Below are positions 11,537 to 61,197 of a stretch of 64,000 nucleotides of DNA, in pieces; the first letter of the stretch is position 1, and every line of letters begins with the position of its first letter. Location of the stretch: IMG/VR virus record IMGVR_UViG_3300024259_000011; one strand, 5' to 3'. Below the pieces are notes generated by a model. That model saw nothing but the letters and a program-made list of their open reading frames with translations, was not told where the DNA came from and ran no database searches. Made by a program: the position numbers and the translations under genes. Origin of the DNA: a virus (lineage: Duplodnaviria; Caudoviricetes).

Positions 11537-14500
11537 TTACCTCCTCCCCACGGATGGTGAGCCCCACGACGCCCCAACTGCGGCGGAAGCTGCCGCTGAT
11601 GTGCTTGCCCTCATGCTCATTCGTCTTGAAGATTCCAAAACACTGCTAGCAAGAGAAGTGACGGCAGAAGCCCCGCTTTCTCCCGTGTCCATCGTAGGCG
11701 CCATAGTAATCTGTTGGCTCAAGTCTTGCAGTTCAATGTCGCTTATTAGTTTCTTATTTTTGAGGCTAATCGACATGTCGAGTTTAGTTGTCTCGACCAG
11801 AGAGAAGAAATCGTATGGCCAGTTGTAACTCCAGTCAGGTGTAGTCGTGCTTGATGCATTTTTAAACTTGAACCTAAACCTGCTATCGTCTGTGTCATCT
11901 GAGGTCTTCGCAAAGTAGTTAATCGCTGCACGTTGCTTAATCTTGAACACCATAAATCGGATTTGCGGAGGTACTTTAGTACCGCCAGTATCAGATGCTG
12001 CCCCAAGAAGCTCCAGAACATTAAGATCATGCGTGACCGACTTCGTTACCTGCTTCATAACCTTTCCAGAATCGGGGTACAATCCCTGCCACATATCTGC
12101 CAAATCTTGACCATCAAACTGATGCTCAAATTCAAACATGTACATTGCGTACGGATTTGCAGTGTCGTTGCGAGCAAAATCCAAGTGAGGGGGAAGCACA
12201 TAATCTTCCATTAGGCGCATTTGCCTTAAGACAGAAGCCCCAAGGTTCACTTGCAAGCCACTTTTCGGAGACTTGGCTTTGCCTTCCAGCGACAGCCCGT
12301 TTTCAAGCGCTGACCAATAAGTAACATTCTCGTAATCATTGCGACCATAATACCGATCAATCTGATCTCTGTTAAGTTCCACAAAGTGGCGGCGACCTCT
12401 GACCATAATATAAGGCATCGCAACCACTGCCTCTTTAACCTTCTTAACTTCTGCTACTTGTCCAAGCTTCTTGGCTGTGGGGTCAAACCCCACTAAGGAG
12501 CCTAATGACCTTGTGAGTGCGGGGATGCCTGACCGGGGCAAGAACTTGCCCGAAGGCACTGTTCGTGGTGATCCTACGGCATCTTGTATCTTGTGAAGAT
12601 ATTTTGCAGGATTACCCAAGCCAAATCCTTGCAGCGTCATAATGGGACTGCGAAGGTTCATGTCGGCAGTCCGGACATTAGCAATATGAACCGGGTTGGA
12701 ATACCACATTTCAATCGGATCTATGATAAACTGTTCCGGAATACTCTTACCGCGATTGGCGTGGGATCCCGTACTGTTGGAGACCCAGCCAGCGGCGGTG
12801 GCGTCCCAACCTCTCATACCCAAAGGATAAATATCTTCAAGACTCCGGAGATGGTTGGTGCTATATGCGTTATCGGCGGCAAGACCCGGGAGAGTTCCGT
12901 CAGCATGGAAGCCCTGAACACCTGCTTTTTCGCCGCCGCCGCCGGTGCCTTGAGCAGTTAACGAGCCGCTACAATTTGCGGGAGAGTCGTTGCTGTCACC
13001 GGCATAGTAATAGTCGCTAGCCCATCTTTGGTATGAAGTTTCGCCGGCAGTAAAACCGCTGATCAAACGGTTGCCGTTCGGGAAGACAGGCGCCGTTCCG
13101 GAAAGCGGACCATCGATAATATGATCTGCAACAAGCTGGCGGTTGGCTGGGGTGTCTCCGCCGCCTTCGCCCCTTCTAGAATACGAGCCAGTATATCCAC
13201 AAAGAATATCAGCCTTTCCTTGACCAACTGAACTGGAGACAACGTAGCTTGTATTAAAAGTGTTCGCAGGAATCTTTCCGCCGACCAGCGGTCCATAGTG
13301 TGCAGTGCCTTGGGCGCTATGGGTCAAGTGAAGGAGAGTGCCCGTAGAGAATGTTTTAACCTCATAGCCCAGCTTATTTGTATAGTACGGATGAGTGTTG
13401 TCATACGCATGGCTATAGAAACTAGCACCTAGGGCATCGCCAAAGGAACCTGTTCCAATGTTATTGGAGAAGTGAGGTTCTTCTGGAATAACGCCTCTCT
13501 TGTTCTTATGGAGCGGACTTCTGTATCCTGCTGCCAATGCAGCCACATCTACGTTCGGGTTGTTTGGCACAGAGTGCTCCCATTGGCTATAATAATTTCT
13601 GAATGGGATTGGTCCGCCTTCGTCATTGAAGGAGCCTGTCAGTTTTCCGATGCCCATTAAGCGCTGTCTGGCAGAGCTTGTGCCCGGGTAGCCTCGATTG
13701 AGATGGGTCTGCAAATCGATAGGAGAAGCGGCTTTGGTGGCGCCGCCGGCGAGATTGGGACCGCCTATGTGACCGTAGTTGAAGTTCGGCAGATTTTGAT
13801 CAGTTGCTGCGTTGCCGGTGGTGATGTTGAATCCCGTAGCGGAGGACCATACTATGTTTGCGGAGCCGGCGTCGGTTACACCGGTGTCATTGCCTGCTTG
13901 TCCGCCTTTTACGGATCTTAAGATAATGCGGTCGGTCCCAAGACCATGCTGAGCATGGGCGGTAGCCTCGATTGTTGACCCTTGTAGCGTGTTAATACAC
14001 AAGACTATAGCCGTTGCAACTACCTGATTGGATACGCCCGATCTGATAAATTGTCCGTTGGCGGCGTCGGTGGCATCTTTCGCGGTATATACTTGAGATG
14101 CGCCGGCGTAATCTGTAATCGTTATAGTCTGGTTCAACGCAGGGGGAGTAGGCGTGCCGTCAGGATCGCCATCAACTTGAAAACTTGCCATGGCATGTGT
14201 ACTAGTGCTTCCGCCGGCGTGGGCTGAGCCGCTGATAATATTGGAACCGGTGACTTCGGCAGTAATATAGAAGCCTCGTTCATAACAAGGGGCGCTACCG
14301 GAGATGCCCGGGGCAACTGCTGAAGTTCTCGTAATCGGACAGCCCCAAGTTGTATCCAGAATCGTTCCGTCGTCTGCAGAGATAAGTTGCAAGTGGGTCA
14401 TGTCTGCAATAATGCCAGCAAGCGAACCGGTTGACATCAGACGCCAGCGCATATATTGCTGTGCGCCGGAGTTGTCCTCTCGGGCTCCGGACCTTCCAGA

Positions 14501-17500
14501 TACCATATCTGGGTTATCGATGGTTTGACGACTGACGATAAATGCGTCTGCAGAGCCCGAGAAAGAACCACTGAATCTATAGCCTTCGCCGGCGAGGAGA
14601 ATGCCGTTAGTCTTGTTAACAATACTATTGGTAAACGTTCCTGAGATATGTCCGTCCCAATCTACTGCTCCATAATATTCTGTACTACCCGACTTCCAAG
14701 TTCTGAGGTTTGCGGTCGATCCGCAATTCCAATCCGGCGAGCCTGTGACTTGTAGCCATTTTGGATTTGCAATAGTCATCTCGGTGCCATGAAGGGTATA
14801 CGGCTCTGGGATGTCTCCAATCTCTAAATAGATTCCCTGCGAGGCTGACGGGATTTCGCCGTACTGGTGCCACATTCCGATTGGTTCGCAAAGACCAGCA
14901 TATCCATGATGATATCCGTTTCTCTCAACCAGACAAGAGCCAGAAGCAGAGCCAGAAAGTGTTGGCGCAGACTGGTTGTCCGTCAAGCCATACCCAAAGT
15001 GCAGGATTGGAGTCTCAAACTTAGTTTCGATAACCCAAGCAGAATTTCTAGTGCTTGTATCCAACGAATCGGAAACCGATAGCGGCTGACCGGTGAGAGC
15101 GTCGTAAGTAACTTCCTTGATTTGGGTTTTGCCCTTAATCTTAACTGCTGCGTCAACTTGCATTGCGTTAACGTTCATCGCATAGCCCTGCGGACCAACC
15201 GTACCCCAATCGCCGTAAGCGCCGGAAACATAGTCGAACTCGTATCTCAGGAAGTTAACAGTTGTATTCTCCCAGATATCATCAAGATAGTGCTTGCCTG
15301 TTCTGGTCGGCTTAAAGGTTACTAATGCCCATGCCTGCCCGTCGTAGTATGGAGGAGTGAACGGGGCATTGTATCCATTGGTGCTGTCCTTCATTCCATA
15401 AGTTGTGCCAATCCTGTCAGCTACCTTGCCAACTGTACCGGAGCCGGGAACGTGTGAGCCTGCGCCGGCGGCAAAGGACATAGACATCGGAGCCACAGAG
15501 CCAGTATACATATATTCAAGTTCTGGTTGGAAAGCATACCCGCCGGCGCATGGAGGACCAAAGGCGCTCGGGCGGCTGTACATTGTGATCGTTTCCGGCG
15601 CGATGATTTGTGGACGAGGATACTGTGATTCTTCCTTGGCATAATCTTGTCCATATGGGCTCTGATAGTCTGCAATTGGGTTACCGACTCCGAAGCCACC
15701 GTCGCTTGTCCATAGCCCGCCATCATCAGCCGCCTGAGAGTCACCGCCATCGGGGTCATAAGAGCCGGATGTGCTGCCGCCGAAGGCACCATATTCGACA
15801 CCCTCAGTCAGCGCGCCGCCGAAGCCCCGTTGGTATCCGCGTGCCTCCATTCCGACCACATCTGTGTAATAGCAAGGCTCGTATTGTCCCAAGAAAGGCA
15901 TGGTGCCACTTGGAGTCCCAGCGTGGGTCAGAGTTGGTATTGGCTTTAGAGGACCACGGTGGTTTGCCCAGTGGTTGCTGGAACTAGGAGTCGTAGACAC
16001 TGCAACAGATTCTTGAGACTTCCAGACCTTGACCATCATTCTATATTCCGGAATGATCTGATCTCCGTTGTGTACAACTGCGCTGACTTGACCAAAGTTA
16101 CCATCACTTTCAGGCAAAGAAGTAAACGACTGCATTTTTCCATCTGCGAGGAAGAAGCTGGGTACTTCTGCCAAGAAGTTATGCATCATCATCTTGTACA
16201 ATGGATCACCTTGACCATTCCAAGAAGCAGTAACATTCATGGACGCACTCGGGTGAGGCTCCATATCAACCAGTGGAACGTTTGTAAGATATTTTTCTGG
16301 CTCCACCAAAGTTTCAAATGGGAGCCGGTTGTCGAAGTATTCGTTTAGAATCTGGTAGTTCCTGCCGCCGTCACGGTCAACCGATGAAGTGGTGGCTAGT
16401 TTTCTGTTCAGAACAGGATAATCTACGGCGATACCGGATTTGATTGTATTAAAGAGGATGCCGGGAGCCATGAAAGGACCGTAAAACGGGCGTTTTGCTG
16501 CTGCCGCATTTCGACCATGAGTTTCAAAACCACTGCTGTAACGCTTTCCAGATCCACCAACTCTCGGACTAGTGGGATCCACGATTTCATCAAGATTAAA
16601 GTCATATCCGCCTTTGTCCACGTCACTGTAGAACATTGCAGTTGTGAGAGTATGTGCGGTGTTAGTACCACCACCAGCGAAGTTGCTACCGATGTGGATG
16701 CCGGTACAGTTTTCAGACATTGTTCTGTTACCGTTGGAGCCGGCAAGAACGCTTATAATAGTAAGTTCTACATATGAGCCGGCAACATGGGATATGTAAG
16801 CGATGAGCGTGTTTTTATGATCGCCGCGTTCAATAGCGTGGCGGAACGCATTTGCTCGCTCGATTGCTCCAGCAACCGTAGTAGCGGTACTCATTTTTTC
16901 CCAGCCAACCGTGTCGGTGCCTACAGTGTTTGCTTGTGCCACCGTGTAGATTACTGTATTATTAGAATAATCAGCTATAGTGAGAGCTTGACCGACTGAT
17001 GGTCCCGCGCTGTTGATAACAAACTGAAGTTTTGCGGCGGCGGCGCCGATAAGCATTGATCCATAGACTTGTCCTTCCGGAACTCTGTGCCATGGGTTAA
17101 ATCCATACCACGGCAAGGCGCTCTTCGGCGGTCTAATTGAGCCCGAACTGTCTGCTCGAACAAAAGAAGACGGCTTATCATTAACACCCATATCGGATTT
17201 AAACGTAACATGTTCGTCGTAACTGTTAATAAACTGCTTGCAAAGGTCTACAGTGCGAAGCTGCGGGTAAAAGCCTTCATACGGCAGGAACTTGAGAACC
17301 GCATCACATGTCAGCGTTAGCTGATATGGCTCTGCAATGTCTGTGTGCTTGCTGCGAATCGCATCAAAGAGAGCCGGCTTTGCAGTAATAGCATAATCGG
17401 AAACAAAAGACGAGGTAACAGTACTGCCAATTTTGGCTGTGTGCGAGGAACCCGTCAGTGGTCCACCGGCAGAAGAACTTGGGTTGCCAATAAGAGAGAG

Positions 17501-20500
17501 CCATTCGCTATCTCTAGACTTAAAGCGACCCTGCTTGTCGAGAACAAAGAAGGGGATCCTGTCGCTAATGCGATATTCCGGAAGCACTTGTCTGTCTTGT
17601 GATTTTCCTCGCATTTCCTCAAACCAATCTGAATAGTTGGCATAGAATGGAGCCTTGCCAGACTGCTCTGGCGCCTTCCATTTCCAGTCGCTGACGTAAA
17701 GTCCCTCGACTGTGTGTCCGATTGATCTTGTGAGTTGCGAAACGATGCGATCACCCAGATCGTATGGCTTAGGCGCTATAGATGAAGTGTGCGGAATTGT
17801 GCAAAATTGATTAGAGTTGATCCCGTCAGCAATACTGTATTCGTCGTTGTCATCGCTGGTCGCGTATTCGTGGTTTATACCGGGAAACATGGGACTCAAG
17901 CCATCACCCTTACCATAAGACGAAGCGCCAGTAAGTTCTGATGTTTCTGAGGCGAAGTTGAACCTTCGACTGTAAGCCGCTTTGCCGGCAGACGGCGAAC
18001 AATAACTGTCGCGTCCGACAAGCATGTGCGGTCTTGCATATGATGGTCCAAAAGCAATGTTTGACGCGGCGCAAACCACATAGCGCTCGGAAACCATGTA
18101 CCCTGCCGGATCGACCCGGGTGTTTCCGATCATCTCAGCTATATTCTGATAGGAGTTGACGGATACCGTTGAAGACGAGACCACTGGAATCCGGGTGCTG
18201 TCAGCAATATTCGTGGGATCCCAGCCATATTTCATGCCATTATGGAACCATGTGAACTGATTTTGTAGAATTCCGGGGGCGCCAAACGTGTGTGCTTTTT
18301 CGATGGAGCGACCGCGCATGAAGCCTCTGTTGTGGCTCAGCGCATCTGAACCCGATGCCCTAAATTGTGCAGCCTCTAGCGATCCATCGACGCCTCCTGC
18401 TCTTGCGCCGAGCATATCCTTTCTGTCAGTTAGCGCAGTGCTGTTGCGTTCAAGGTTAATACTTCCTCCGTCCATTGGCCAAACGCTGGCAGAGTATTCG
18501 ATATATTGAACGTTGTTTTCTTTTGACTCTTGGTTGTGGAAGACACTGTAAATCGTATCAGTTGTGCTCCAGTAATACGTCGATGCGTCTGGACCTAAGT
18601 GGAACCGAAAAGCCGTCCTAGGAGACCGGGGGTCACCGGTTTCGTCGAAATATGTCCTTCGACCAACTGGATCATAATCTACTAAGTGGGATTCGTCGTC
18701 AAGATGCTGCATTTCCGCGTCGTCGTCGGCTGCCCAAAAGCCTGCATCAAAACGGGCGCGGCTACGATAGCCGGCGCGACCAACATTTTTTGCTCTCGGG
18801 AAAATGGTTTCCCTGTATATTAAGCTTACTAATGTGTATGCATTGTCACCATTAATATCCGTCTTTTCCGTGTACATTTCATACAGATCATCAAACACGG
18901 TTCTTTCACTCTTATAGTTTAATAAACCTACATCTGTGTTAAGCTTGTTGATTGGGAAGTTTTTGAGATTGTTTTGATATGTACTCTTAACATAAAGCAG
19001 ATCTTCGGTTGTAGAATAATGGGTACCTTCGGGTCCGCCCATAGTTCCCAAGCCCGGGCTGAAATGTGCCTCAGTAAAGTCGCCGACCTGAATGGTGGTG
19101 ATCATCGACTTAGAGGACCGGTCTACAACTGGTACATAATAGTGATGGTGCGTTCTTTCTGCCGTGTTGATGTGACCTAAGCGCTTGAATGCCGCAACAG
19201 CATCCTTGCCTCGCATTCTACTCTTGTATCTGCGGCGACCAACAAAGCCCGGGGCGGGGTTTTCAACCCTGTCAGACTGAGGATCTACCAAAACATAGCG
19301 GTTGTTCTCGCGCATGGTTCTTGCAAGAATGTGCTCGCCGGTACGAATCTGCTTCCATGTCGGATATCCATACGGTCCATTGCGTTTCCACATCAAGCTA
19401 TTGAAGATGCTGGCAACAGACTGGTTAATGGCATAATGCTGATGATCTGTGGAAGAGGGTGTAAAGTCTACATTCTCATGAGTAAACGTCCCTGCTGCGC
19501 CTGACCAGTACATGGGGGTCACGTCATAGCGAATCTTCTCGTTATCCCATAGATCCGGGCTGGTGCCATCGGAATCACCAACAAAAGCACCCTGAAGGTG
19601 GATTTTCTCGGAGTTGTGGATGGTGGGACCAATGCCGGAAACCGATTCGCGACCATCGTTGAACAAGAACGTGCCGTTAAGATAGTTATGCAAGCTGCCA
19701 ATGCGAGAGCCATATGCAAATCCGCCGCGTCTATCGTTTGTGTTCGCGCCGATAACCTGCTTATCGTCTGCTGGCAAGATGCCGCCTGAAGCAAAGAAGC
19801 CCAAAGCGACAGCGCCTGAAGCGTCTGAGAGCCATGTGTTCTGCTCTTCGCGGAGATTTAGGTTGAGCGTCTGGACGTTTGGAATATCCTGATAGCCCAG
19901 AGACTTAGCGATACCAAAATATCGGAAGCCTCGGTCGTCGCTGTTGGCGTGAGTGTCCGTGTCGCCGATGGCACTTCCCGCATCGCTAGCACTGTTAAAC
20001 AAGATCGGGTCAACCGGTCGAGAGCCGGTGAGTGTCGGGATGTTAAGAGACGATAGGTGGTACCCGTAACCTAACTGTGGAAGTGTTGAATCGCTGCCAG
20101 ACGGCGCCAAAGACGCACTAATCCAAGCATACTGATAATCATTTTGCGGGATTGGGCGAGTTACATAGTCGTTATCGTAACGCCACCTATCGACAACAGC
20201 GGGAAGCGCGCCGGCGCCCATTTGAGTATCCCCCCATGAAGTGCCCTGTTCGCCGACTGCGGCGCCTCCGTCAACAGTAAACCAAGTCCCAAGCTCGTTA
20301 CGGGCTTCTGCGGCGTTGCTCCAATCAATAGAGTTGGCTAAAGTCCCGCTCAAGGCGTAAGTCAGAATGATAACTTGATAGTAGTTTGACGATCTGTTAG
20401 TGTAGTCTGAGACACCAAAGCCTGTTGTGCCCTTGATCGCATTTCCAAGTGCAGTTATATTTGCAGCACTATCAGCGATTGCAGAGGCTGTAGTGTGAAT

Positions 20501-23500
20501 ACCAATGAGATATGGATCAGCCGCTGTACCCGCTTTTGTAAGGTCGGTAACATCAACGCCGGTGTCGTCAACGCTGTTTTTCCATTGATAATGGTGTGAT
20601 GAGCCGGTGGCATCTTGAATAATAACTGTGGAGCCGGCGGTGGGTAGTGTTGAGTATAGGTTACCAATAGCGACCTTTCTTGCTACCGAAGTAGGATCTA
20701 AATCTGCCTCTTCATCGCTGCGACCGCTGCGGAATCCAAAACTCGGGTTTCTGTTGACCTTGTGCCATGATGCCTGCGTATCGTAAGTACCGGCAGTTGC
20801 ACCACTTGTGACAGTCGGCAAGCCGAACCTGCCCATGGGAAGGCGACGGAGTGACTGCAATCCCAATCGTGGGTGTGCAGCCATATCGTGGGTGCTTGCG
20901 CTAATGTTGTATTGCTCACCGCTTGAAGAGCCTAAGACTTCAAGGTTCCGCCATGGGTATGCGTTGTATACAGAATATTCTTCTGCCGCGAGGTCAAGGA
21001 ATCCCTTGGATTGGTTTCTTGGACCGCCGGGAGCAGAGAACCTGTTTGCGAAAATTGTATCTAAGTTAGTGCTGGAAGACGCTCTATTCTGAACTTCAAA
21101 ATCCATATAAACGTGTTGATCATCAGTGCCAGCGCCGCCACCCTTAATCGCAGAAACAATAACTCTTGCGCCGTCTGCAACTGAGGCTGAAGAGTGGGGA
21201 TCTGCTAAATAGTTATATACAAAGACATCTGTGTTGTCTGTAGAAGAAAGGTGTTGGGGATCGCCGGTCGTGCTGTTTGGCAAGAATGAGTGGCGCTGAG
21301 TCAAGAAAGTCTCGACATGTGTGGTCGCCGGAAGTTCTACAATGTTGGTTGGCGTAGTGGCGCTCCATGACGCGCTGACGCCTGCAGTGTTGACATTGCC
21401 GCTAACTTCTGCGAACGAACCTGTCTGCAAAATATTGCGAACCGATTGGTTGTCTCTTAGGAACGGCTTCTGCACAGAACGTCCGACTGTGTGGACGACC
21501 TCGTAGTTCTTTCTGTAGTTCCCAATGATCGTTCTTGCGGAACCGGTAGCAATCTGGTTATGGTAGTCAATAACCCAAGTGTCAGCAGTACCAGTGGCAG
21601 GTGTGAGAGGCTGAGTGTTATAAGCAAACTGAGTTGCGACGGTAGAGTTCTGGGCTGCCGTAAGGTTATAAATGCCGTACAGTGCATCGTCCTCCCATCT
21701 GGTGCCTAGGCGGTCTGTGTCGTATTCGTTGCGCCCGTCATAGAACAATACAGAGTTCTTGCCCTGACTTGTCAGAGAATGATCGCTGCTGTGATCACCC
21801 ATTCTCCACCATGCCAACAGGCTACCAGTATCAGACTGATAAGCCAGAGTCCTCACCACGAATGGCGGACCTCCAGAAGCGGTGTTGGGGTGTGAATAGT
21901 AACCCCCGTTGCCCATTAGTTCTCGGACTTCGCCTTGTGATAGCGGTCGATTCCAAATGGTAATGTCGTCTATTGAGCCACTAAACTCATATGATGCTGG
22001 AGCGCTGATATTTCCGCCGATTACGACTGCCGGGGCGATATTAAGCGCATTATTTGAACTGTCTTTGCGGAAGGCGTGTGAAGAAGTCATTTCAATGACA
22101 AACTTGGCGGGTGCGATGTTGGTCGTTACAGTCTGCTCCGTACCGTTAAGATAGACTTTCGGCTTCGCGTCGGTGTCAATCTCAAAGCCGTCTGAGCCGG
22201 AAGTACCGCCCTGAGTCGCATCGTAAGTAACTGCTAAGTGCCACCAGCCCTCATTGTCTGTAAGATATGAGCCGCTTTCATCACTGTTAAGTGTCATTGA
22301 GCCTGTGGCTGTAACCCACTGAGCGTGGCGACCATATGTCGTTTGTCCTTGTTCCTGCAGAGCATCGGAAGTTGTTGGCAGCCGAATCGACAAGAAGTCG
22401 TTAGCCGTTTTGTCGATTGTCCAGCCGCCATATTCGCCGCTAGGTCCATATTTAGCACTGCCCATAGTGATGAGGCGGCGGTTTGTGCCGTCATCCTTCA
22501 TCCACAGCCATGTAGAGTACGTGAACTTGGCATTGCTGCCTGAGAAGTAGAATGGGTTGCTAGAGTAGTCAGGAGTCTCCGAGTGAACATGCCGCACTGT
22601 GTTGGTGACAGCGGTGTATGGTCCGTAGATGGATGCGCTGACATAAAGAACATCACCAGCCGCATCTCCGGAGGCTGGCCAAGTAACACCCTTTGAGTTG
22701 CCAGCGTAAATGTTTACAACCTTGTGGCGACCAACGTTTTGTGTTTCTGGGTAAAGATAATAATCTCCCGCAGAAGCCGTCTTCATCTGAATGTTTCTGA
22801 TGTTAACTGGTCTCTTCGCGGTTTCATCGCGATAGTATCTACCGCCAATCGGTCGCCAGTTAGTAGCGTCACCTTGCGCGAAAGGATAAGGACCATGTGG
22901 GTATGGATAGTCTGGACCAACCAAACCAACGCCACCAGAAGTTGCGTCAATAACACCGTCTGAATAACTCATAGCCGTGCTTATGAGCATCAAGAAACCT
23001 TCTTCTCGATTTTGAATTGTGTGCGTTCCGTCGTTAACGTCGGCGTGTCGGTACCTTCGACCTCCAACATACTTTTCAGTAAACGGACCCTGCAGAGGTA
23101 GTTCCTTGTCTTCGCCGTATGTGTCTGTGTGAAGGTTAACTAAGTTAACACCTCGACCGAGACCACCAACCTTCGTAGTTATCTGTGATGGCGGGTCGAA
23201 ATAAGCTTGCCCAATCTTGTGAGTGTAAGTCCCATCAGAGCTAGTGCTGGTGATTGCTATGCCAGTGCCAGTGTATACAGTTAACTCTTGATTGATTAAT
23301 GCGGTGTAGCCTGCGTTAACATCCTCGGTGCTAGAAGAAATAACGTTAAAGGGCATGACCAAGTTACCACGGAATGTGGTGTATGACCCGGATCCCCAGT
23401 CTGGAGTATAAGCTCCGCCGGCAACATATTGCCCACCAGCGTTTGACTTGAAAGTTTCCCAGCCATCAATAACCTTATAACCTTCTCGTTTTACAACGCC

Positions 23501-31222: not shown

Positions 31223-31245
31223 TTATATGTATCTCCTGCAAATAA

Positions 31246-45431: not shown

Positions 45432-45435
45432 GCCA

Positions 45436-47015: not shown

Positions 47016-47021
47016 ATGCGG

Positions 47022-47237: not shown

Positions 47238-47244
47238 ATTCTCC

Positions 47245-50391: not shown

Positions 50392-50852
50392 GTACCGTAT
50401 TCCATCCTATAATTCGTGACATAATCACTGCATATTCCCAAACATCGGGATAAGTCTACTCTAGAGTATACCACGTTTTCTGGCATAACGCAAATGGTTT
50501 TCTCGTTTAATGTTTTTCCCGGGTATGCCCAAATCATGCCGGCAGAGGTTAATGTATAATCATCCTCTTGATGCCAGAACACGTTCCATCCTTTTTCGCG
50601 AGTAAAGTATGTGTATGTTTCTAAGTCTTTTGCGTGGATGAACAGATGCCCTCGGCGTTCTTCAAACCATTCAATAGGCAACTTGTGTTCGCCGTAGTCA
50701 TGACCCATGATAAACTGTCCGAGCATATTCCCCTTTCTAACGTCTATTTCGGCGTAGAAGCCTTCTGACAGGGCTTTGTCGATGTAGTCGGGGCTGTTCT
50801 CCAGTTCGGGCTTAGGACCGTCTGTGTTGCCTCTGTGGGCTATATACATCAT
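50388..50852 (-). CDS. PLC-like/GDPD-like phosphodiesterase-fold protein
   Basis: 'YIAHRGN...ENSP...EIDV...GHD...HAKD...WHQEDD...GICSD'. Confidence 0.7.
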   Translation of the reverse strand: MMYIAHRGNTDGPKPELENSPDYIDKALSEGFYAEIDVRKGNMLGQFIMGHDYGEHKLPIEWFEERRGHLFIHAKDLETYTYFTREKGWNVFWHQEDDYTLTSAGMIWAYPGKTLNEKTICVMPENVVYSRVDLSRCLGICSDYVTNYRMEYGT

Positions 50853-52215: not shown

Positions 52216-52216
52216 G

Positions 52217-53605
52217 CTATTCCCTAGGGTGGTGCTGAAGATAGTGGTTTAGATCCTCGGGTGTTCCGAGACCCCACATTCTATCAATGTGGAAAACCTT
52301 AATCTTCTGGGCGTCCTCGCATGCCTGATTGTATACAGGGCAAACATAAAACTCGTTATTAGTACGAATATCTCGCTCAATCATTTGCTCAGTATACTTT
52401 ACATAATCAGAGCCCTTGCGGAAGTAATAAACTCCAGCCGTCGCAATATTGCTAATGGGATTCTTCTCTGCGACCTCTGTAACAAACCCATCGTCACCAA
52501 GCTTTGCGAAACTCCACTTGGGATGAGTCGCTTCAAAGGTAAGGATACCTCCGTCTACCTCATCTGCAACCATAGAATACATAAACTCGTTGCTGTCCCA
52601 CTCAAAAACCTGATCGGAGTTTGAGATGACCAGAGGCTCATCGTTATTGATAAACTCCTTTGCCAACAATGTAGTACACGCTGCACCTTCAGTAATGCCG
52701 TCCACCTGTACAATCACACATTCCGGTGAGATGAGGTTTAATAACTGTTGAAGATTATATTTCTCATAGTGCGACTTTTGCACGATGTAAATGTGACGAG
52801 CCTCGATGTTCAAGTTCTCCGTCACTAGTTGGATCATTGGTTTACCGTTGACATCGATAAGCGGCTTCGGGAAAGTATACCCTGCCTTTTCAAATCGACT
52901 TCCGGCACCCGCCATTGGAATTAATACGTTCATTTTGCCTCCTTGCCATGGTGTAATAATTTTTTGAGATTTAAAGTTATGTTCGATAGCACCCTTGACC
53001 TTCTCATAGGTCACGTCGTCAGGGTTACGCACCGCGCATAAAGAAGCACCTGAACTGAGTGCTGCCTTACGACCGATGTGTGAGTCCTCTACAATAAGAG
53101 TATACTTGGGTCCGATGCCAGCTTTGATCATGCACTTCAGATACATTTCTGGGCTGGGCTTTGGAGCCTTGACATCTTGGTTGGAATAAATAAACTCGAC
53201 ATACTCCAAGAGTCCCTTCTTGAGAAGCATCATCTTCACGGATTCTCTGATAGAGTTCGATGCGCAGCAGATTCTATATCCGTCATCGCGGAGTTGCTTG
53301 AGCACCCCACGCATGCGTGTGTCATACTCCATCTCCTCGGAGATGATCTTGTAAGTCATGTCCTGCTTGCGCTGCCACACAGTATTGTGTAGTTCCTTCG
53401 GCAAGCCCTTGTTCTTTGTGAGCATGTTCAGCTTCTTTGACGTGGGCAGCCCATCATATGTTGATAGGTGCTCAGCACGATTCACAATGTACTTTCCGTC
53501 CACTGATGCTAACGCTCTGTTTAAAGCCTCGTAGTGTAGCTCGCGAGCATCTACGAGGACGCCATCTAAATCGAAGATGACTAAGATTTCACTATTGTCT
53601 ACCAT
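52217..53605 (-). CDS. HAD phosphatase / sugar-phosphate nucleotidyltransferase fusion
   Basis: N-terminal 'FDLDGVLVD...PKPSP...EDS'. C-terminal 'LIPMAGAGSRF...PKPLI...EGAA...NSD...EK...GTPEDL'. Confidence 0.9.
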   Translation of the reverse strand: MVDNSEILVIFDLDGVLVDARELHYEALNRALASVDGKYIVNRAEHLSTYDGLPTSKKLNMLTKNKGLPKELHNTVWQRKQDMTYKIISEEMEYDTRMRGVLKQLRDDGYRICCASNSIRESVKMMLLKKGLLEYVEFIYSNQDVKAPKPSPEMYLKCMIKAGIGPKYTLIVEDSHIGRKAALSSGASLCAVRNPDDVTYEKVKGAIEHNFKSQKIITPWQGGKMNVLIPMAGAGSRFEKAGYTFPKPLIDVNGKPMIQLVTENLNIEARHIYIVQKSHYEKYNLQQLLNLISPECVIVQVDGITEGAACTTLLAKEFINNDEPLVISNSDQVFEWDSNEFMYSMVADEVDGGILTFEATHPKWSFAKLGDDGFVTEVAEKNPISNIATAGVYYFRKGSDYVKYTEQMIERDIRTNNEFYVCPVYNQACEDAQKIKVFHIDRMWGLGTPEDLNHYLQHHPRE

Positions 53606-54318
53606 TATTGTCTTCCTAAAAATATTTTCTCAAATCTATGAGTTTCTTGATAACCGGGATCATAGCAGTATCCCTGAACAGAAAGCTCTGACAAGTCATA
53701 GCCCTCCATATTTAAAACCATTCCCCACACACGCTCCATCGCTTCAGACTGGCGCTTGGTTGTGGGTCGAATCTTGTCGAACCCTGCAGCCTTGAGCTTA
53801 TCTAAGACAGTGCGCTTACACATGAGCATCGGTCCAAAGAGGGCGGCGAATCGATGACCCAACTCTGGCTTATAACTTGTCTTCGCCAGAAGCTGTGTGT
53901 TCGCCCAGTTGTATGTTTCATCATAAACAAATCCATTGTCTCCGGTTGGCACCTCTGCTGGTGTCCAGCCCACTCCATTCCACGAACGGAAGTAGCGCAA
54001 GGCGACAACATCTTCTTCTAGAAGATCCAAGAGCCCGTCCTTGATTAGCATAGAATCATGAAGAAAATAATAATAATCGTAATCAGGATAGTTCTCATAG
54101 GTGTGCCAAATATTTCCAGTTGTAAGGCTTTGGTTCCCAATGTCTTCAACCTTTGCGCCAAACTGTTTAACTGCTCCATAATATGATTTGTCCTCTGAGT
54201 TACTGTCTACGATATGAATGGGAGAATCCGGATGGTGCTCGCGAATGCTTTGAACGCACGGAAGCACGACCGGGTTCGCCGGGTCAAATCGACAGGTGAT
54301 TGAAAAAAGATGTTTCAT
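53605..54318 (-). CDS. Putative GT-A glycosyltransferase
   Basis: 'CVQSIREHHPDSPIHIVDSNS...YYFLHDS' and 'AMERVWG'. Located in the glycan cluster. Confidence 0.55.
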   Translation of the reverse strand: MKHLFSITCRFDPANPVVLPCVQSIREHHPDSPIHIVDSNSEDKSYYGAVKQFGAKVEDIGNQSLTTGNIWHTYENYPDYDYYYFLHDSMLIKDGLLDLLEEDVVALRYFRSWNGVGWTPAEVPTGDNGFVYDETYNWANTQLLAKTSYKPELGHRFAALFGPMLMCKRTVLDKLKAAGFDKIRPTTKRQSEAMERVWGMVLNMEGYDLSELSVQGYCYDPGYQETHRFEKIFLGRQ

Positions 54319-55226
54319 TTGAATCGTGGTGGGGCTGTAGATTGAATCAGGCGCTCATAGAGAAGCGTTGCTTTGTCAACACCTACAGACATTATCCTTG
54401 TGAGCTTCGGGCGATATCGGGAGCCATAGAATCCATCGTTCCGCCACACTCGCATAAGAACACTACCATCGCGGTCGCGATAAATACGCATTTGGTCAGG
54501 CATGCCAAGACCCCAGCCGCGAGAGTCGCGACCTAGGTTGTTGTCGTTGTCCCATACGTCGTTGACCAACAGTTCATAGCCGGCTCTGTTTGCCGTCAAG
54601 CCCCACAAGGATTGCTCGTTGAGTCCTTGCTCCATCATGGGGTTCTGAATAATGTCAGCGTCAAGAGATACGCGATAGATGTCTTCGATAACTTTCTGGT
54701 AAGGTCCGGCGGATTGCCAGCCCAAGACTGCAGCAAACACTTGAAACTTGCTGGCTTCTTCTTCGGTCAAGCCGATACCCTTGTGGTAGTTCTCACTGGT
54801 TCGCCAATCGTTTCTCCAACGTTGATCGGAAGAAAAGAACAGCCCGTCGCGGGCAATGACTTCAAAGACTTTTTCAACGTTAGTAAACGGAGCGATACCA
54901 GAGTCAATCCAAAGAATGTTCTTTCCATACTCCTGTGCATGATGGACGGCGCCGCACTTCCAAACGTGATTGCGGCTCTGACTCGTCTGCTCGTCAGTCA
55001 TACAGTCGGTGTAGCCCTCGTAAGGGTCTTCGGGGAACTCAACAACTTGAGTCTTTGGATATTCATTAAGGATTGCCTTCTCTTCATCCGTGAGTCCCAG
55101 ATTAAAAACAATAATCTGATCCACAACATCACCTGAAAAACATAAAATGTGCTCAATCATCGTACGACCCGAAGTGAAGTACTCGCCGGAGTTGTTGAAC
55201 GCTGTGGCGATAATATTATTATACAT
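54315..55226 (-). CDS. Putative nucleotide-diphospho-sugar transferase (DUF1647/GT77-like)
   Basis: 'IIVFNLGL...VWK...ILWIDSG...EQSL' is a GT-A pattern with a DxG/DxD site. Confidence 0.6.
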   Translation of the reverse strand: MYNNIIATAFNNSGEYFTSGRTMIEHILCFSGDVVDQIIVFNLGLTDEEKAILNEYPKTQVVEFPEDPYEGYTDCMTDEQTSQSRNHVWKCGAVHHAQEYGKNILWIDSGIAPFTNVEKVFEVIARDGLFFSSDQRWRNDWRTSENYHKGIGLTEEEASKFQVFAAVLGWQSAGPYQKVIEDIYRVSLDADIIQNPMMEQGLNEQSLWGLTANRAGYELLVNDVWDNDNNLGRDSRGWGLGMPDQMRIYRDRDGSVLMRVWRNDGFYGSRYRPKLTRIMSVGVDKATLLYERLIQSTAPPRFK

Positions 55227-55228
55227 CT

Positions 55229-55564
55229 CTATCCCTTATACGCTCTGATTGCAACGATCTTGCTATCGGAATTGAACTCAATGATGTCCACAACTAGGAA
55301 AGGGTCCATTCCTGTTATCATAATCTCGATTTCAGCCGAAATTGTAAGGTCATCTGTGTCAAAATGTAGCGCAATTGGGCGCACCACGATGGCTTCCACG
55401 TTCTCAAAAAGTGCCGCATTTGCCTTCAATACCGGATATTTGCCTACATACGTCCCTTCCCAGTCTCGTAAATAAATGTTATCGGCATACAACTCCCCTA
55501 AACGCTCTGTGTCTTTAGCCGAAAATGCGTCAAAATACGCTACTGCTGTTGAATATAAATCCAT
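55229..55564 (-). CDS. SnoaL/NTF2-like protein
   Basis: Start moved to the ATG at 55564 (AAGGAG RBS). 'YFDAFSAKD...LYAD...DW...G...VVDIIEF...KIVAIRAYKG'. Confidence 0.75.
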   Translation of the reverse strand: MDLYSTAVAYFDAFSAKDTERLGELYADNIYLRDWEGTYVGKYPVLKANAALFENVEAIVVRPIALHFDTDDLTISAEIEIMITGMDPFLVVDIIEFNSDSKIVAIRAYKG

Positions 55565-55574
55565 TTGTTTCTCC

Positions 55575-56465
55575 TTAATACCTTTGACCCGGGTGGACCT
55601 TGTATTCGTCCTCTCGGGGCTCTTCTCTGTTTGGTCCCACAATCGAGTGGAAAATGTGTACAACGAATGGACCGCCGATGTCAATAAACGGCACGCCTTG
55701 CACTCGTTGGGCAGCTTGGATTCCCCAAAAACTCAGGTTCCAAGTGCGGTCTGGGTTAGAACCCTGAAAATCAATCTCTGAGAAGGTCGTCCCATCCATA
55801 TAATGGCAGTTAAAGTCTGCTCTAACGGTGTGGGCTACAAACCTTACCCTAGGATCTGTAGGGTCTTCAAAGTCTCTACGCATGTCAGCAGCCAAGTCCT
55901 CTGGATCTTGATGCCAAATGTCTTTTAAAACCCGGAGGTCACCGTCGCCCAAAGAATCAGCGTAGTCGCTGCCAAAGTAATAAGTGATCTCATCTGATGG
56001 GACGAAGGCTCCTCGTTGGAGATATTGTAGAATTTCATCTTTTTGAATATATTCTTTTGCATTAGCGGTTGGTGGGGTAAAGATAAAGCGACTATCAGTA
56101 CTTATTGACGTGTCAATATCTCCCAAGCCCTTCATAAAGTTGGCAGAAACCCCATAATCTGACTTTAACATTAGTACTTTAGCAGGATTTGCCTCTTGAC
56201 AATGACTAGTTAAATAAAGCATGTCCTGCCCAAGAGTCTTTCCATCGCTCTTGGGCAGGATCTCAATCTTATCAAAATGGTGTCGAAGCCTATATTTATC
56301 GATCAGACCGAGAAGCTTGTTGTTCGGCAACTCCTGAGGGTGGGTATTGTAGATGTACATTACATCAAACTTATAATCCACGCTCTGGTTTGCCAAAGAG
56401 TTAAAACAAATGTCAGCATGCTCTTCGCCTAATGTGGCATGCGTGTTAAAGTAGCAGATTCTCAA
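55575..56465 (-). CDS. Putative glycosyltransferase-like protein
   Basis: TTG start overlapping the upstream TGA. 'LMLKSDY' DxD-like site and late 'VVHIFH'. Located in the glycan cluster. Confidence 0.45.
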   Translation of the reverse strand: MRICYFNTHATLGEEHADICFNSLANQSVDYKFDVMYIYNTHPQELPNNKLLGLIDKYRLRHHFDKIEILPKSDGKTLGQDMLYLTSHCQEANPAKVLMLKSDYGVSANFMKGLGDIDTSISTDSRFIFTPPTANAKEYIQKDEILQYLQRGAFVPSDEITYYFGSDYADSLGDGDLRVLKDIWHQDPEDLAADMRRDFEDPTDPRVRFVAHTVRADFNCHYMDGTTFSEIDFQGSNPDRTWNLSFWGIQAAQRVQGVPFIDIGGPFVVHIFHSIVGPNREEPREDEYKVHPGQRY

Positions 56466-57232
56466 AGTACTACCTCATAATATTGTCCCTTGGGTTTAAT
56501 AATCTTACAGTCTTGCATTTCCTCGATTGTTGCCTCGTCAAGAGGAAGCTGAAATGAGCTTCTTTCGGGGTGCAAGCGCGCACGAAGGTCTAAGATGTTC
56601 GGGCGCTTGCCGCCAGTCATCGCAACTCCGTCCATAATATGCATAACGTACTGCCGGTCAGTGGCAAGGATTTGATAGCCGTCATTTTTCGAGCGTTCGA
56701 TTCCCTTCACTTCGTACTCCCAACAGTCTTCTCCACGAATCAAGTATTTCATTAGATAATCCTTGTTCCAGATGTTAAAGCGCAGAGCCAGACGATAGCT
56801 GGCGTCTTGTGTTAACTCAATTATATCATACTCTCCGCGATTTTCAACTAAATTGTTGCTGCGCTGAGAGGGACCGGGGGTTAAATCGACTCGTCCAATC
56901 TTTGGATTGAGGCGATCTACCAAATCATTATAGATTGACATGTCAAGCGGCTTAAGAAAAAACTCATTCTCAAGCATATGCACAAAGTATTCGTCTTCGA
57001 TGCCTTTGAAATAATCAAGATGATCATCGGTCCAGTACTTCAGACCGCGTTGTTCGCCCAAAGAGACGAACTCATAGTTAGATGGAAGGTCGAACTGCGG
57101 ATGGTCAAACCCTACGATTACGACTTTCTGTTCTGGCGACCAAAACTTGTTTAATAGGAAGCTGAATGGTCGCAGGATATGCAGATAATCGTTAGATGTA
57201 AAGACGTATACATTTAAATCTTGTGTTGTCAT
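56462..57232 (-). CDS. Putative glycosyltransferase-like protein
   Basis: 'VYVFTSN.Y...FLLNKFW...YFVHMLENEFF...NIWNK.YL...WEYE'. Start placed at the ATG at 57232. Confidence 0.55.
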   Translation of the reverse strand: MTTQDLNVYVFTSNDYLHILRPFSFLLNKFWSPEQKVVIVGFDHPQFDLPSNYEFVSLGEQRGLKYWTDDHLDYFKGIEDEYFVHMLENEFFLKPLDMSIYNDLVDRLNPKIGRVDLTPGPSQRSNNLVENRGEYDIIELTQDASYRLALRFNIWNKDYLMKYLIRGEDCWEYEVKGIERSKNDGYQILATDRQYVMHIMDGVAMTGGKRPNILDLRARLHPERSSFQLPLDEATIEEMQDCKIIKPKGQYYEVVL

Positions 57233-57233
57233 G

Positions 57234-58052
57234 TCAGCCCCCTTGAATAAAGTATGTGACGATAGAGTTTTCGATAGGCTTGCCATGCCAGAAGGCTTTT
57301 AAACCATGGTGTTCACCCAAGCTGGCTAACGTATCTTTGCTGAAATAATATAAATGCTCTGCCGGCTTGATGTGTTTCCACTCTACGCCTTCGTTTTTAT
57401 AGTTCTCGCATTCAATATCATGAGTACCTACGACAAGCACACCCTTAGGGGATAGTCTCTTCACCATCTCAGCCATTAAAATGTCCGGGCGAGCAACGTG
57501 TTCAATAGTATTAAAGCACATGATGACATCAAACGTGCCATTGTCGTAATCCTCAATGTATCCCTGCTCTAGAGGGACAGCATACTTTTCGATGCCCTCA
57601 TCAACATCTTGTTGGTTGGGGTCGATCCCATGCGCTGAGAATCCTGCCTCTTGTGCCGCATCGACTAGGAAACCCATTGAGCAGCCAACATCGAGAAACC
57701 TGCCAGTCGGATTAAACCGCAAAGGCGGAGGCAGCAGGCGATAAAAGCTTTGAAGAAAGCCAATGCGTTCAACAGAAATCATTTCAAACTCTTCACAGCG
57801 CTCATCAATCCTGCGCTCACCGATGCTGGTTTGATACTCTCGCCAGTAGTCGCCCTCGTACTTGTCACTCCAGTGATCGTTGGGTTGTGGCGGGTGGGAT
57901 GCAATGAAACCACAGTTGGAGCATTGTTTAATATCAAGCTTTTGCTTGCCGCGCCGGGACGCAGGCAAGTCAGAAAACTTATGCACAATCTTACGACGTT
58001 TTCCGCCGCAAATCAAGCATCCGCTTTTTTCTGTTCTATCCTTCATTCGCAT
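57234..58052 (-). CDS. Class I SAM-dependent methyltransferase with N-terminal Zn ribbon (sugar methyltransferase-like)
   Basis: 'CLICGG...CSNCG', 'FLDVGCSMG', 'GIDP', 'FDVIMCFNTIEHV', 'HLYYFS'. Confidence 0.9.
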   Translation of the reverse strand: MRMKDRTEKSGCLICGGKRRKIVHKFSDLPASRRGKQKLDIKQCSNCGFIASHPPQPNDHWSDKYEGDYWREYQTSIGERRIDERCEEFEMISVERIGFLQSFYRLLPPPLRFNPTGRFLDVGCSMGFLVDAAQEAGFSAHGIDPNQQDVDEGIEKYAVPLEQGYIEDYDNGTFDVIMCFNTIEHVARPDILMAEMVKRLSPKGVLVVGTHDIECENYKNEGVEWKHIKPAEHLYYFSKDTLASLGEHHGLKAFWHGKPIENSIVTYFIQGG

Positions 58053-58950
58053 ACCATGTGTTTTTGCCGATAGTGATGGCTTCATAAATTGTATTCCATA
58101 GATTATACTTGTTGAGGATTAGCTCTCTCGCCTCAGTCATCGCCGGAATATGATCTTCAAAGTTGTCCTCTTCGAGAAGCTTAATAATCCGTTCTATTTC
58201 ATTATGATTTCGAGCATCGAACGGAATGTAAGAGCCCTCGGGAAAGAACTCATGAATGTTGGAGATTCCGGGTGCAACATTATAAATAGGCAAAGCCCAA
58301 GACAGTAATGTATCTGTGAATTGTGTTGCGAAATAATTTGGGTAAGTTCCATTGTCGAAAGCCAAGCAATAACGGTAGTCTTTAAGAGTATTATACTTGT
58401 CATCGTCTTTAATTTCAAGCACAAAATCAGTTAATTCTGGAAGTTTACTGATTCGTCCGTATAAATCAAACTTATCAGCGTGGCGCTTTTGTAGTTCTTT
58501 AACAAACTGTACGCGGGTATCCATGCCCGGTAGCCATGTCTTTTCAGAAACAGTGCAAGACATTCCTTTGTTCTTTTTCTGGGGCTGTAGCTTGAGCAGT
58601 TGATCATAAGTTTTTGTATACCCGGAGCGCTCGCAGTACCAGAAGCTAGAAAAGTAAGATTCACCGGTCAGGAAGGAGAACCGCCTGATACGTGGATCCA
58701 TTGGTCCCATACCTCGACCGACACCCCGGGGCTCACGACTAAAATAGAAAGTCTTGTTAGCATCCGGTGTCTGGTGATCTGTTGCTTCCAAGATAACGTA
58801 GTAGTCGGCATCGTTTATATCCGGCACTCCCTTCATATCTTTCCACACGCCAGAGTTCCCGGGCGTTTGCCGCTTGGCTCGCTCCAGCAGTTCATTCTGG
58901 CTCATGTTGTCCATGCCGCGTGAGGGCATAAAGTAAATCTTAAAACTCAT
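58036..58950 (-). CDS. Glycosyltransferase family 10-like protein (fucosyltransferase fold)
   Basis: 'FDLYG...KYNTLKDYRYCLAFDN...LPIY' matches the GT10 C-terminal motif, but the canonical TEK reads ATQ. Confidence 0.7.
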   Translation of the reverse strand: MSFKIYFMPSRGMDNMSQNELLERAKRQTPGNSGVWKDMKGVPDINDADYYVILEATDHQTPDANKTFYFSREPRGVGRGMGPMDPRIRRFSFLTGESYFSSFWYCERSGYTKTYDQLLKLQPQKKNKGMSCTVSEKTWLPGMDTRVQFVKELQKRHADKFDLYGRISKLPELTDFVLEIKDDDKYNTLKDYRYCLAFDNGTYPNYFATQFTDTLLSWALPIYNVAPGISNIHEFFPEGSYIPFDARNHNEIERIIKLLEEDNFEDHIPAMTEARELILNKYNLWNTIYEAITIGKNTWYANEG

Positions 58951-58952
58951 TG

Positions 58953-59759
58953 TTAATCTCTGCAGTCTCTATAGTGGTAGTTAAATGTTGTTAACTGATC
59001 GCCCCAAGCCTGCTCCAGTAGATGTACTTGGCGGAGCGTGTACTTGTCTTTATGCGTTTCTTCAACTGGGTTTATATTGCTTTCTTCTGCAGCAACGTTC
59101 CGATATGGAATCTCGTTCCTTTCGCACCAACTGGTAAAGTCTGTCTGTAGATATTCGGTTCTCAATATGTTTTCCATCTTAGGAATCAAAGTTCCGTCTT
59201 TCCTGTATAGCTGGGCAAATAAGTTCTGCTTAAGTGGCGGAATGTGCCAGTCCTTTCCCTCATCCAAATAATGCTCTACAAAATCATGAAATGTGGTTGT
59301 TCCCATAATCGCATTGCAGCCAAACCAGCCGCCGTGGTTATCAGTTGTTGCAACCCAATCGTCCATGTACTTTGGACGATACCGCCAATATGAATAAAAT
59401 AAATCAAATGGATTCCTGATAATCGTAACGTAGCCTATGTGGTCATTCTCTTCCGTATAGTCTGGGCTGAACTTAAGATGATATGGCATGTCCTCCAGAA
59501 ACGGCATATGAAAATATTTTGTAGCTTTGGGCTTCCATCCGTTGACTGTAAACCTATACGGAAATGAATGTCCTAGATTCTCTACTTTAGCCCCTAGGGG
59601 TTCAACCGAATCCGCCTTTGACACTACATGCTTTCCTAGATTGTCCATCAGATAGAGATATTCCATCTTTTCTGGGGGAGGCTTAAAAGCATCAAGTGAG
59701 TTCTTAAGCCAAGTCCCTCCCGTTTTGGGAACATGAATAAATAGCCATTTAGAAATCAT
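58953..59759 (-). CDS. Sulfotransferase (Sulfotransfer_2-like)
   Basis: 5'-PSB 'FIHVPKTGGTWLK' and 3'-PB-like 'IIRNPFD..YS'. True start is the ATG at 59759, overlapping the upstream stop. Confidence 0.8.
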   Translation of the reverse strand: MISKWLFIHVPKTGGTWLKNSLDAFKPPPEKMEYLYLMDNLGKHVVSKADSVEPLGAKVENLGHSFPYRFTVNGWKPKATKYFHMPFLEDMPYHLKFSPDYTEENDHIGYVTIIRNPFDLFYSYWRYRPKYMDDWVATTDNHGGWFGCNAIMGTTTFHDFVEHYLDEGKDWHIPPLKQNLFAQLYRKDGTLIPKMENILRTEYLQTDFTSWCERNEIPYRNVAAEESNINPVEETHKDKYTLRQVHLLEQAWGDQLTTFNYHYRDCRD

Positions 59760-61197
59760 AGTCGAACATCTCAATGTCTTCTTGATATCTCTCCGCAACT
59801 TTGGCACGGAGGTTGTCAGTATAGTAATCTTTGTAGGCGCCGGAGTTCGAGGAAACGTTAATGTTCCCAAGCTCGTTGTCAATATTGACGTTGGCACACA
59901 AATACGCCCATTCTTCTTCGATGTTCTCCAGCTTTCCAACATGGTTAACGAATACTTCACCGCGATGTGTGATGAATGTATGTTGTGACCTGAAATGGTC
60001 TTCCGCCAACTCATCTGGAATTGCGCAGACCGCATCTGCGAAATCAGAGAACGTCATGTCAGGCTGAAATAAGTCTCCGTAGTTTTTTACCAAAGCGCGG
60101 TGGACGCCATTCTCATAAAAATCGTTTGTATCTCCAGACGCAAGAATCTTATTCTTATAGCAAGAGACAAGTCGATCCCATGGATTGCGAACTATTGCGA
60201 ACTTTAGATAATCCCACACACGGTCTGTAGCCATCAAATGCTTAGATGCGATTGGCCAATTGGCAGCGTGCATCGCCTCAAAAGAGTGTAAGTCGTTAAA
60301 TACATCCTCTTTAGCTTCGGTGCTGATATTCACTTCTACGTCGAACTTGGTCGCCAGCGCCATTTTAAGACTGCTGCATGCGACCTTTGGAATGAAAGTA
60401 TACACAAACCGATTTGCCTCTGAGACAATGCAGGTCGATGGGTATTGCCCATGTTCCTGCGGGAGTGTTGCATAAGGACGCTTGGCACGAATCTCATTCT
60501 CCGTTCGGATCTGCAACTCGTTATCAATCTTATGATCGTTTAGCGGGTTTGACATATTGTAAACGTATAAAGGTTCAGTTACGTGAGTGCTCTTTGCTCC
60601 AGCCATCTCCAGCATTGGGAACATGAAAGCTAAGTCCCATGCCATGCGGTAAAAGTTGCCATCAGTGTCCTTAAGATCTGCAGGGTCAATGCGCTTCCAC
60701 AGGTCGTGCTTAAACGTACGCAAGTGAGAAGCCTGCCACGGGGATCTTCTTAAGACACTATTAGCTACCCATTCGTTAGGGATTTGCTTCGCAAACTTAC
60801 CCTTCATCCCAGATGGATATTCGGCGTAGCTACCGTAAGTCATTCTGCAATCTGAGTTCTTATAGATTTGGTCTAAAGCATACAATACGTCTCTGCGAGA
60901 CAGCCAGTCATCACCGTCAAGGGTTACAATAACGTCTTCCGGGGAGGGGTCTGCGATCTTAATGCCATCGTAAATATTCTTAAGAGCATATGCTTTTTCT
61001 TGCACCTCAATAAATATAAAGCGAGGGTCATCACCGATCTCTTCGCGTACAATCTTTGCTGTACCATCTGTTGACATGTCATCCAATAGGATACATTGGA
61101 AATCTTTATAGTCCTGCGCCTTGACCGAACGAATACAAACTTTAATCCACTTCTCTACGTTGTAAAACGGAACAATGATTTTAAAATGGTTACCCAT
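59749..61197 (-). CDS. GT2 glycosyltransferase / Sulfotransfer_2 fusion
   Basis: N-terminal 'IIVPFYN...DDMSTD...LDGDDWL'. C-terminal 'FIPKVACSSLK...IVRNPWDRLVSCY...HFRSQ...GKLE'. Confidence 0.88.
   Translation of the reverse strand: MGNHFKIIVPFYNVEKWIKVCIRSVKAQDYKDFQCILLDDMSTDGTAKIVREEIGDDPRFIFIEVQEKAYALKNIYDGIKIADPSPEDVIVTLDGDDWLSRRDVLYALDQIYKNSDCRMTYGSYAEYPSGMKGKFAKQIPNEWVANSVLRRSPWQASHLRTFKHDLWKRIDPADLKDTDGNFYRMAWDLAFMFPMLEMAGAKSTHVTEPLYVYNMSNPLNDHKIDNELQIRTENEIRAKRPYATLPQEHGQYPSTCIVSEANRFVYTFIPKVACSSLKMALATKFDVEVNISTEAKEDVFNDLHSFEAMHAANWPIASKHLMATDRVWDYLKFAIVRNPWDRLVSCYKNKILASGDTNDFYENGVHRALVKNYGDLFQPDMTFSDFADAVCAIPDELAEDHFRSQHTFITHRGEVFVNHVGKLENIEEEWAYLCANVNIDNELGNINVSSNSGAYKDYYTDNLRAKVAERYQEDIEMFDYDF

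Follow-up and report, generated by a model that had tools for sequence, protein, structure and literature searches.

Avoidance of GGCC up to the coding limit in an uncultured phage lineage, and the TGGCCA context of its remaining sites

The 64,000-nucleotide stretch of the virus record IMGVR_UViG_3300024259_000011 (Duplodnaviria; Caudoviricetes) analysed here, referred to below as the window, has been purged of the restriction-type word GGCC. Every avoidable copy has been removed through context-dependent synonymous choice, which places the purge at the limit of the genetic code, and amino-acid replacement has done away with about half of the Trp-Pro pairs, where the word is unavoidable. The most probable explanation (roughly 0.8) is that selection purged the targets of many host DNA-cutting defences, one of them directed at GGCC and most simply of the HaeIII-type Type II kind, with TGGCCA as a tolerated context. 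Restriction-site avoidance is itself textbook; the new elements are that the coding limit has been reached, that a dipeptide has been halved, and that a flank rule governs the sites that remain.

GGCC and the Trp-Pro coding limit

An exact search of the window (G+C 47.2%) finds GGCC seven times, at positions 11817, 18477, 22677, 34762, 35335, 41872 and 60254. Base composition predicts 199 copies and a second-order Markov model 214, while dinucleotide-preserving shuffles give 193.5±13.6, with even the lowest shuffle far above the seven observed. Shuffling synonymous codons within each gene, a procedure that preserves both protein sequences and codon usage, gives 196±11 with a minimum of 171. 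This last null is the codon-preserving shuffle that the initial annotation, made from the sequence alone, had proposed as a check. That annotation had counted seven copies, all within TGGCCA, against about 200 expected; the exact search returns the same seven, and the expectations span 193.5-214 across null models. Its positions pick out the right sites, each giving the T of TGGCCA, one base before GGCC itself. Among all 4-mers of the window GGCC is by far the most depleted (ratio 0.03), followed by AATT (0.42).

The context is TGGCCA in seven of seven cases, and each is an in-frame TGG-CCA (Trp-Pro) on the minus strand, as the annotation had held in describing every copy as forced. The sites are spread over four open reading frames (ORFs), at 11537-27907, 31650-40433, 41397-45431 and 59749-61197, all on the minus strand:

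11816..11821, minus strand: in-frame TGGCCA, Trp5363-Pro5364 of the 5456-aa (amino acid) ORF at 11537-27907
18476..18481, minus strand: in-frame TGGCCA, Trp3143-Pro of the same 5456-aa ORF
22676..22681, minus strand: in-frame TGGCCA, Trp1743-Pro of the same 5456-aa ORF
34761..34766, minus strand: in-frame TGGCCA, Trp1890-Pro of the 2927-aa ORF at 31650-40433
35334..35339, minus strand: in-frame TGGCCA, Trp1699-Pro of the same 2927-aa ORF
41871..41876, minus strand: in-frame TGGCCA, Trp1186-Pro of the 1344-aa ORF at 41397-45431
60253..60258, minus strand: in-frame TGGCCA, Trp314-Pro of the 482-aa GT2/sulfotransferase ORF at 59749-61197, within a glycan-synthesis island

Codon choice accounts for the removal of all other copies. 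GGC is the commonest Gly codon (41%), yet it is used in 0 of 261 cases before codons starting with C; likewise GCC makes up 23% of Ala codons, yet is used in 0 of 296 cases after codons ending in G. The only codon ending in GG that precedes Pro is TGG, and the NGG codons of Arg and Gly are never found there. No reading frame, and neither side of the word, escapes this complete avoidance. Trp-Pro is the sole dipeptide that cannot be written without GGCC, which accounts for all of the leftover sites.

The reach of this selection into protein sequence is seen when the window is taken together with three depleted contigs, G001 (L032-L039; 141 kb, completeness estimated at about 78%), G002 (59 kb) and G003 (52 kb), whose baseplate protein is 74-77% identical to that of the window. 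Compared with synonymous shuffles, GGCC occurs 11 times against 324 in G001, 7 against 183 in G002 and 6 against 156 in G003. Across the four depleted genomes Trp-Pro is found 31 times against 60.8 expected (Poisson p=2e-5), whereas non-depleted relatives carry 33 against 34.3, and the control pair Pro-Trp stands at a ratio of 1.10. Several Trp-Pro pairs of a relative with normal GGCC, G008, have Tyr, Phe or His in place of Trp in the depleted genomes. Since the halving of Trp-Pro is confined to genomes that are depleted in GGCC, selection evidently reaches the protein. The intense selection proposed in the initial annotation is borne out by this halving together with the empty GGC and GCC classes.

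Codon choice at the forced sites

The four depleted genomes hold 31 copies of GGCC, all of them in-frame Trp-Pro, and the Pro codon is CCA in 30 and CCT in one. After other codons ending in G, Pro is written CCA in 35% of cases in the same genomes, and against this baseline of 0.35 the excess has a binomial p of 4e-13. Counted instead by distinct orthologous site, 15 of about 16 are CCA throughout (p=1.6e-6). The CCA bias had been part of the earlier description of this DNA, with general Pro codon usage named as what might explain it away; CCA makes up 33% of the Pro codons of the window. With a baseline of just 0.33-0.35, neither general Pro codon usage nor the context of a preceding G is accepted as the cause of CCA.

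Shared ancestry does not account for the pattern either. The window and G001-G003 agree at a fraction of only 0.36-0.39 of their four-fold degenerate third positions (0.34-0.36 for Pro), so that synonymous sites are saturated and the codon choices of the four genomes are effectively independent rather than inherited. A within-site control contradicts phylogenetic inertia as well: at three orthologous positions Pro is CCA, CCC or CCG when it follows Phe, Tyr, His or Leu, and always CCA when it follows Trp.

Taken singly, the seven sites of the window show the following. The Trp-Pro at 11816..11821 is deeply conserved, being CCA in G001 and G002 and CCA, CCT and CCA in the distant G004, G005 and G006, respectively. 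The site at 22676..22681 also occurs in L014, which has a 96% identical baseplate protein. A search of the relatives for an aligned ortholog of 18476..18481 found none. At 34761..34766 all aligned clade members have TGG-CCA. At 35334..35339 those relatives that retain Trp all have TGG-CCA, and where Tyr is substituted the Pro codon is CCA or CCT. The site at 41871..41876 is CCA in G001, G002 and G003, and that at 60253..60258 is CCA in G001 and G003.

TGGCCA is nevertheless not a neutral word. In the two other reading frames of the window it occurs 0 times against 14.9 expected from synonymous shuffles, and it is therefore the least bad context rather than a harmless one. The suggestion of the initial annotation that TGGCCA is the least harmful context agrees with both observations, since 30 of the 31 forced sites are CCA and TGGCCA is still removed where a synonymous choice exists. 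An asymmetric target of the form VGGCC/GGCCB, under which TGGCCA would be neutral, is refuted by the same out-of-frame count. A union of 6-bp enzymes (StuI, ApaI, EagI, EaeI, HaeI and Sau96I types) was also considered and rejected, as the loss extends to all ten NGGCCN contexts and GGWCC occurs in normal numbers.

The tolerated context may extend beyond six bases. A G directly 5' of TGGCCA, equivalent to a C directly 3', is found at 2 of 60 symmetrised half-sites in the window and G001-G003, a rough statistic as the sites are partly orthologous; the sequences thus tentatively suggest a tolerated context of H-TGGCCA-D. A literature search for a TGGCCA-specific effect returned nothing relevant.

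Relatives with normal GGCC provide a further comparison. Distant ones write CCA at only 10 of their 23 Trp-Pro pairs (Fisher p=1e-5). TGGCCA is not depleted in G004, G005, G006, G008 and L019, all with normal GGCC. Out-of-frame TGGCCA stands at 9 against 4.5 (p=0.015) in the partly depleted G008, a suggestive but weak signal; the undepleted G005 is likewise enriched.

Methylated cytosines are mutable, and the loss of GGCC could in principle be mutational decay, with the word methylated in hosts and then deaminated, and with CCA at the remaining sites owed to chance, codon bias or ancestry. CCA is indeed the commonest Pro codon of the window. However, the products of deamination are not enriched (ratios of 1.09 and 0.96 for GGTC/GACC), AATT is depleted although it contains no cytosine, and the preference for CCA far exceeds its context-matched baseline in lineages whose synonymous sites are saturated. 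With no deamination footprint and with avoidance complete in all frames, mutational decay is rejected as extremely improbable.

Other purged words and the distribution among relatives

GGCC is one of many purged words, a point that the initial annotation had missed: about 20 restriction-type words, GGCC among them, have been purged from the window. CCWGG occurs 0 times against 65 expected from the Markov model or 105 from composition, while CCSGG is abundant. Thirteen 6-bp palindromes are present in 0-1 copies each against 11-17 expected by composition; twelve have no copy (ACGCGT, CACGTG, CAGCTG, CCGCGG, CGCGCG, CTCGAG, GACGTC, GAGCTC, GTCGAC, GTGCAC, TACGTA and TTCGAA) and the thirteenth, CGATCG, has one. 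Neither CACGAG nor CAGCTC occurs in either orientation, which for asymmetric words points to a target at the DNA level. The co-purged words look like classical Type II/IIS specificities (REBASE).

AATT presents a milder case. Against synonymous shuffling it occurs 105 times versus 317 in the window and 371 versus 715 in G001, a partial depletion seen in all flank contexts. Codon choice could avoid every AATT, and selection against it would therefore seem to be less strong, or to have begun later.

The sets of purged words differ between close relatives. G001 additionally lacks CCCGGG, GGCGCC, TCCGGA, CTCCTC, CGTCTC and GGTCTC, and is short of CTGAAG and GGCGGA; the window has all eight words in normal numbers. 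Several of them resemble Type IIS/IIG sites, a class in which a survey of viral genomes (PMC6286503) reports that avoidance is absent. Among the relatives examined CCWGG is absent or nearly so in almost all, including L019, L139 and G006, which have normal GGCC. AGGCCT is absent in G004, G005, G006, G008 and L019 (e.g. 0 against 9.5 and 0 against 11.3 expected), and GGGCCC and CGGCCG are low in several of these five.

Depletion of GGCC itself is patchy. Placed on a baseplate-protein tree, GGCC depletion covers most of the clade at 74-96% identity but not one sublineage (G008/L012, L025, L148 and L149), nor L019, which is nested beside the depleted L001. A search for longer contigs of these non-depleted sublineages found none. 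Among more distant lineages L142 has 3 copies against 40, L144 has 0 against 63, and L139 is normal. The absence in L144/L145, a 190-kb TARA contig whose baseplate protein is 52% identical to that of the window, holds over 21.8 kb with 63 copies expected; without GGCC there is also no Trp-Pro, and the purge in that lineage has removed the forced sites too. This mosaic fits differing host restriction repertoires. The trait would be labile, since some close relatives have normal GGCC, and host populations would accordingly differ in whether they carry a GGCC system. Patchiness among close relatives and the purge of about 20 further restriction-type motifs both speak for the pressure from host defence that the initial annotation had put forward.

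Differences in purged motifs between relatives might also be produced by self-avoidance, in which the phage packages or expresses its own GGCC-cutting nuclease that shreds host DNA and gains immunity by keeping few sites. The number of purged words, about 20, weakens this reading, and the seven sites kept in the window would be a heavy cost under its own enzyme, which makes self-avoidance very unlikely.

Gene content and the candidate defence

The ORFs of the window (1..64000) are tightly packed, nearly all of them on the minus strand. Apart from the forced sites, the main features are as follows:

11537-27907, minus strand: giant ORF of 5456 aa, on one side of the baseplate wedge genes
29405-31222 and 31261-31650: ORFs with baseplate wedge PHROG matches
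31650-40433, minus strand: giant ORF of 2927 aa, on the other side of the baseplate wedge genes
41397-45431, minus strand: virion protein of 1344 aa with Amidase_2 and Peptidase_M23 domains
47245-64000: glycan-synthesis island beside the virion genes

The 2927-aa product has no Pfam match, and the equivalents of the two giant ORFs in relatives are 4800-5000 aa and 1900-2250 aa long. Enzymes of the glycan island include a GDP-mannose 4,6-dehydratase, a DegT aminotransferase, a HAD/nucleotidyltransferase and a GT2-sulfotransferase, together with a GT10-like fucosyltransferase, a GT4 enzyme and an S-adenosylmethionine (SAM) methyltransferase. With its one forced site the island is as free of GGCC as the remaining window, which indicates full adaptation to the purge. 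Marine metagenomes and IMG/VR viral contigs contain many relatives of the baseplate protein. Searches of the phage collection with DNA and protein gave no match to the window. The GDP-mannose dehydratase failed as a hint to the host, being 47-54% identical to proteins of many phyla. The search with this enzyme also met a group of cyanobacterial loci (L083, L104, L106, L107, L110, L111 and L126); these chromosomal stretches are strongly GGCC-depleted in their own right (e.g. 1 against 32, 4 against 22 and 7 against 40).

The surviving context is exactly the 6-bp palindrome TGGCCA, which raises the alternative that an overlapping modification by a phage or host methyltransferase of BalI/MscI type shields TGGCCA from a GGCC nuclease. 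Such a shield would be incomplete, as TGGCCA is absent out of frame and Trp-Pro has fallen to half. Moreover, the scanned ORFs of the window (all except the 5456-aa ORF at 11537-27907) contain no DNA methyltransferase domain, the only methyltransferase among them being of the generic small-molecule type inside the glycan island, and the partial genomes G001 (141 kb), G002 and G003 have no match to PF00145 (C5), PF01555 (N4/N6) or PF02086 (D12). Overlapping modification is accordingly considered unlikely.

The preferred reading, a host defence directed at GGCC among many others, would operate through repeated exposure. Each GGCC would be a separate chance of cutting on entry into a cell that carries the system, and fewer sites would mean better survival of the phage lineage. 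The leftover Trp-Pro pairs would be held at TGG-CCA if TGGCCA, probably as H-TGGCCA-D, were the flank where the defence works least well. The 5' T is fixed by the Trp codon, and a 3' A would give a T-flanked half-site on both strands; a symmetric enzyme with 5' T as its worst flank might then cut more slowly there, or its protective modification might act faster. Known enzymes with the required specificity exist, as GGCC cut between its second and third bases is the site of HaeIII, BspRI and BsuRI, and the rates of restriction enzymes are in general modulated by flanking sequence (PMC4081073).

Several observations weigh against this account. Close relatives that are no longer GGCC-depleted keep CCA at seven of eight Trp-Pro pairs, which may be left over from earlier selection or may reflect another factor that also favours CCA. 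The TGGCCA rule is not universal, given that the GGCC-depleted cyanobacterial loci leave mostly GGGCCA/TGGCCC. For GGCC alone, a target at the RNA level may be conceivable because the word is palindromic and all genes lie on one strand. Finally, no GGCC-specific restriction or modification gene was found, in a methyltransferase search that covered partial genomes of the relatives (the best 141 kb, about 78% complete). The profiles RE_HaeIII and RE_NgoPII had no match in G001-G003 and none in control genomes either, which makes this result uninformative.

A defence that reads GGCC need not be a methylation-based Type II system. In the Dnd phosphorothioate system with a GpsGCC core, unmodified DNA is restricted by DndFGH, and changes in the flanks alter modification (PMC6435447), and a flank-dependent modification of this kind would suit the rule seen at the remaining sites. 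The likeness lies in a GGCC-reading defence whose action is influenced by flanks, and makes Dnd a candidate here by analogy. Avoidance of sites by phages has not been linked to Dnd in the literature found, and no report was found of Dnd systems causing it. The roughly 20 co-purged words resemble classical Type II/IIS sites, which makes a HaeIII-type enzyme simpler than Dnd for GGCC as well, and a phosphorothioate-based agent is judged improbable.

Among described cases the nearest are a survey of site avoidance and the Bacillus phage phi29. Virulent phages commonly avoid restriction sites according to the survey (Rusinov et al. 2018; PMC6286503), in which roughly one viral genome in ten shows complete or near-complete elimination, chiefly of orthodox Type II sites. 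The window resembles that survey in that a short palindromic restriction-type word is almost gone from a double-stranded DNA phage alongside other such words. It differs in that the survey dealt with known host-enzyme pairs, whereas the agent here is a candidate suggested by sequence, the purge is traced to the Trp-Pro coding limit, and a halved dipeptide and a fixed flank are seen at the forced sites. In phi29 (EU771092), a phage of Bacillus subtilis whose 19.3-kb genome has 0 GGCC against 21 expected, the word is likewise eliminated; GGCC is the site of BsuRI/HaeIII (PMC4081073). The present lineage keeps 6-11 forced sites per ~50-140 kb. The much smaller phi29 can do without GGCC altogether, and hence without any Trp-Pro codon pair, so that it shows no flank rule.

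Avoidance is usually given as a count ratio alone, and is shown here with its reach and its cost in protein sequence. The forced sites carry extra information, on the flank preference of the candidate enzyme. There is perhaps an even chance that the spelling of forced Trp-Pro reflects a genuine biochemical trait of an uncharacterised defence carried by an uncultured marine host, namely either a GGCC-directed system (restriction or phosphorothioate) that is strongly flank-dependent to ~8 bp, with H-TGGCCA-D tolerated, or a dedicated protection of TGGCCA. If this is true, codon choices at coding-constrained phage sites could reveal which flanks are preferred by defence enzymes not yet isolated. 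The roughly 20 purged words, whose set varies among close relatives, also give an indirect list of the restriction systems present in an uncultured marine host population. From this list a CCWGG system is predicted, as well as a GGCC system that deals poorly with TGGCCA.

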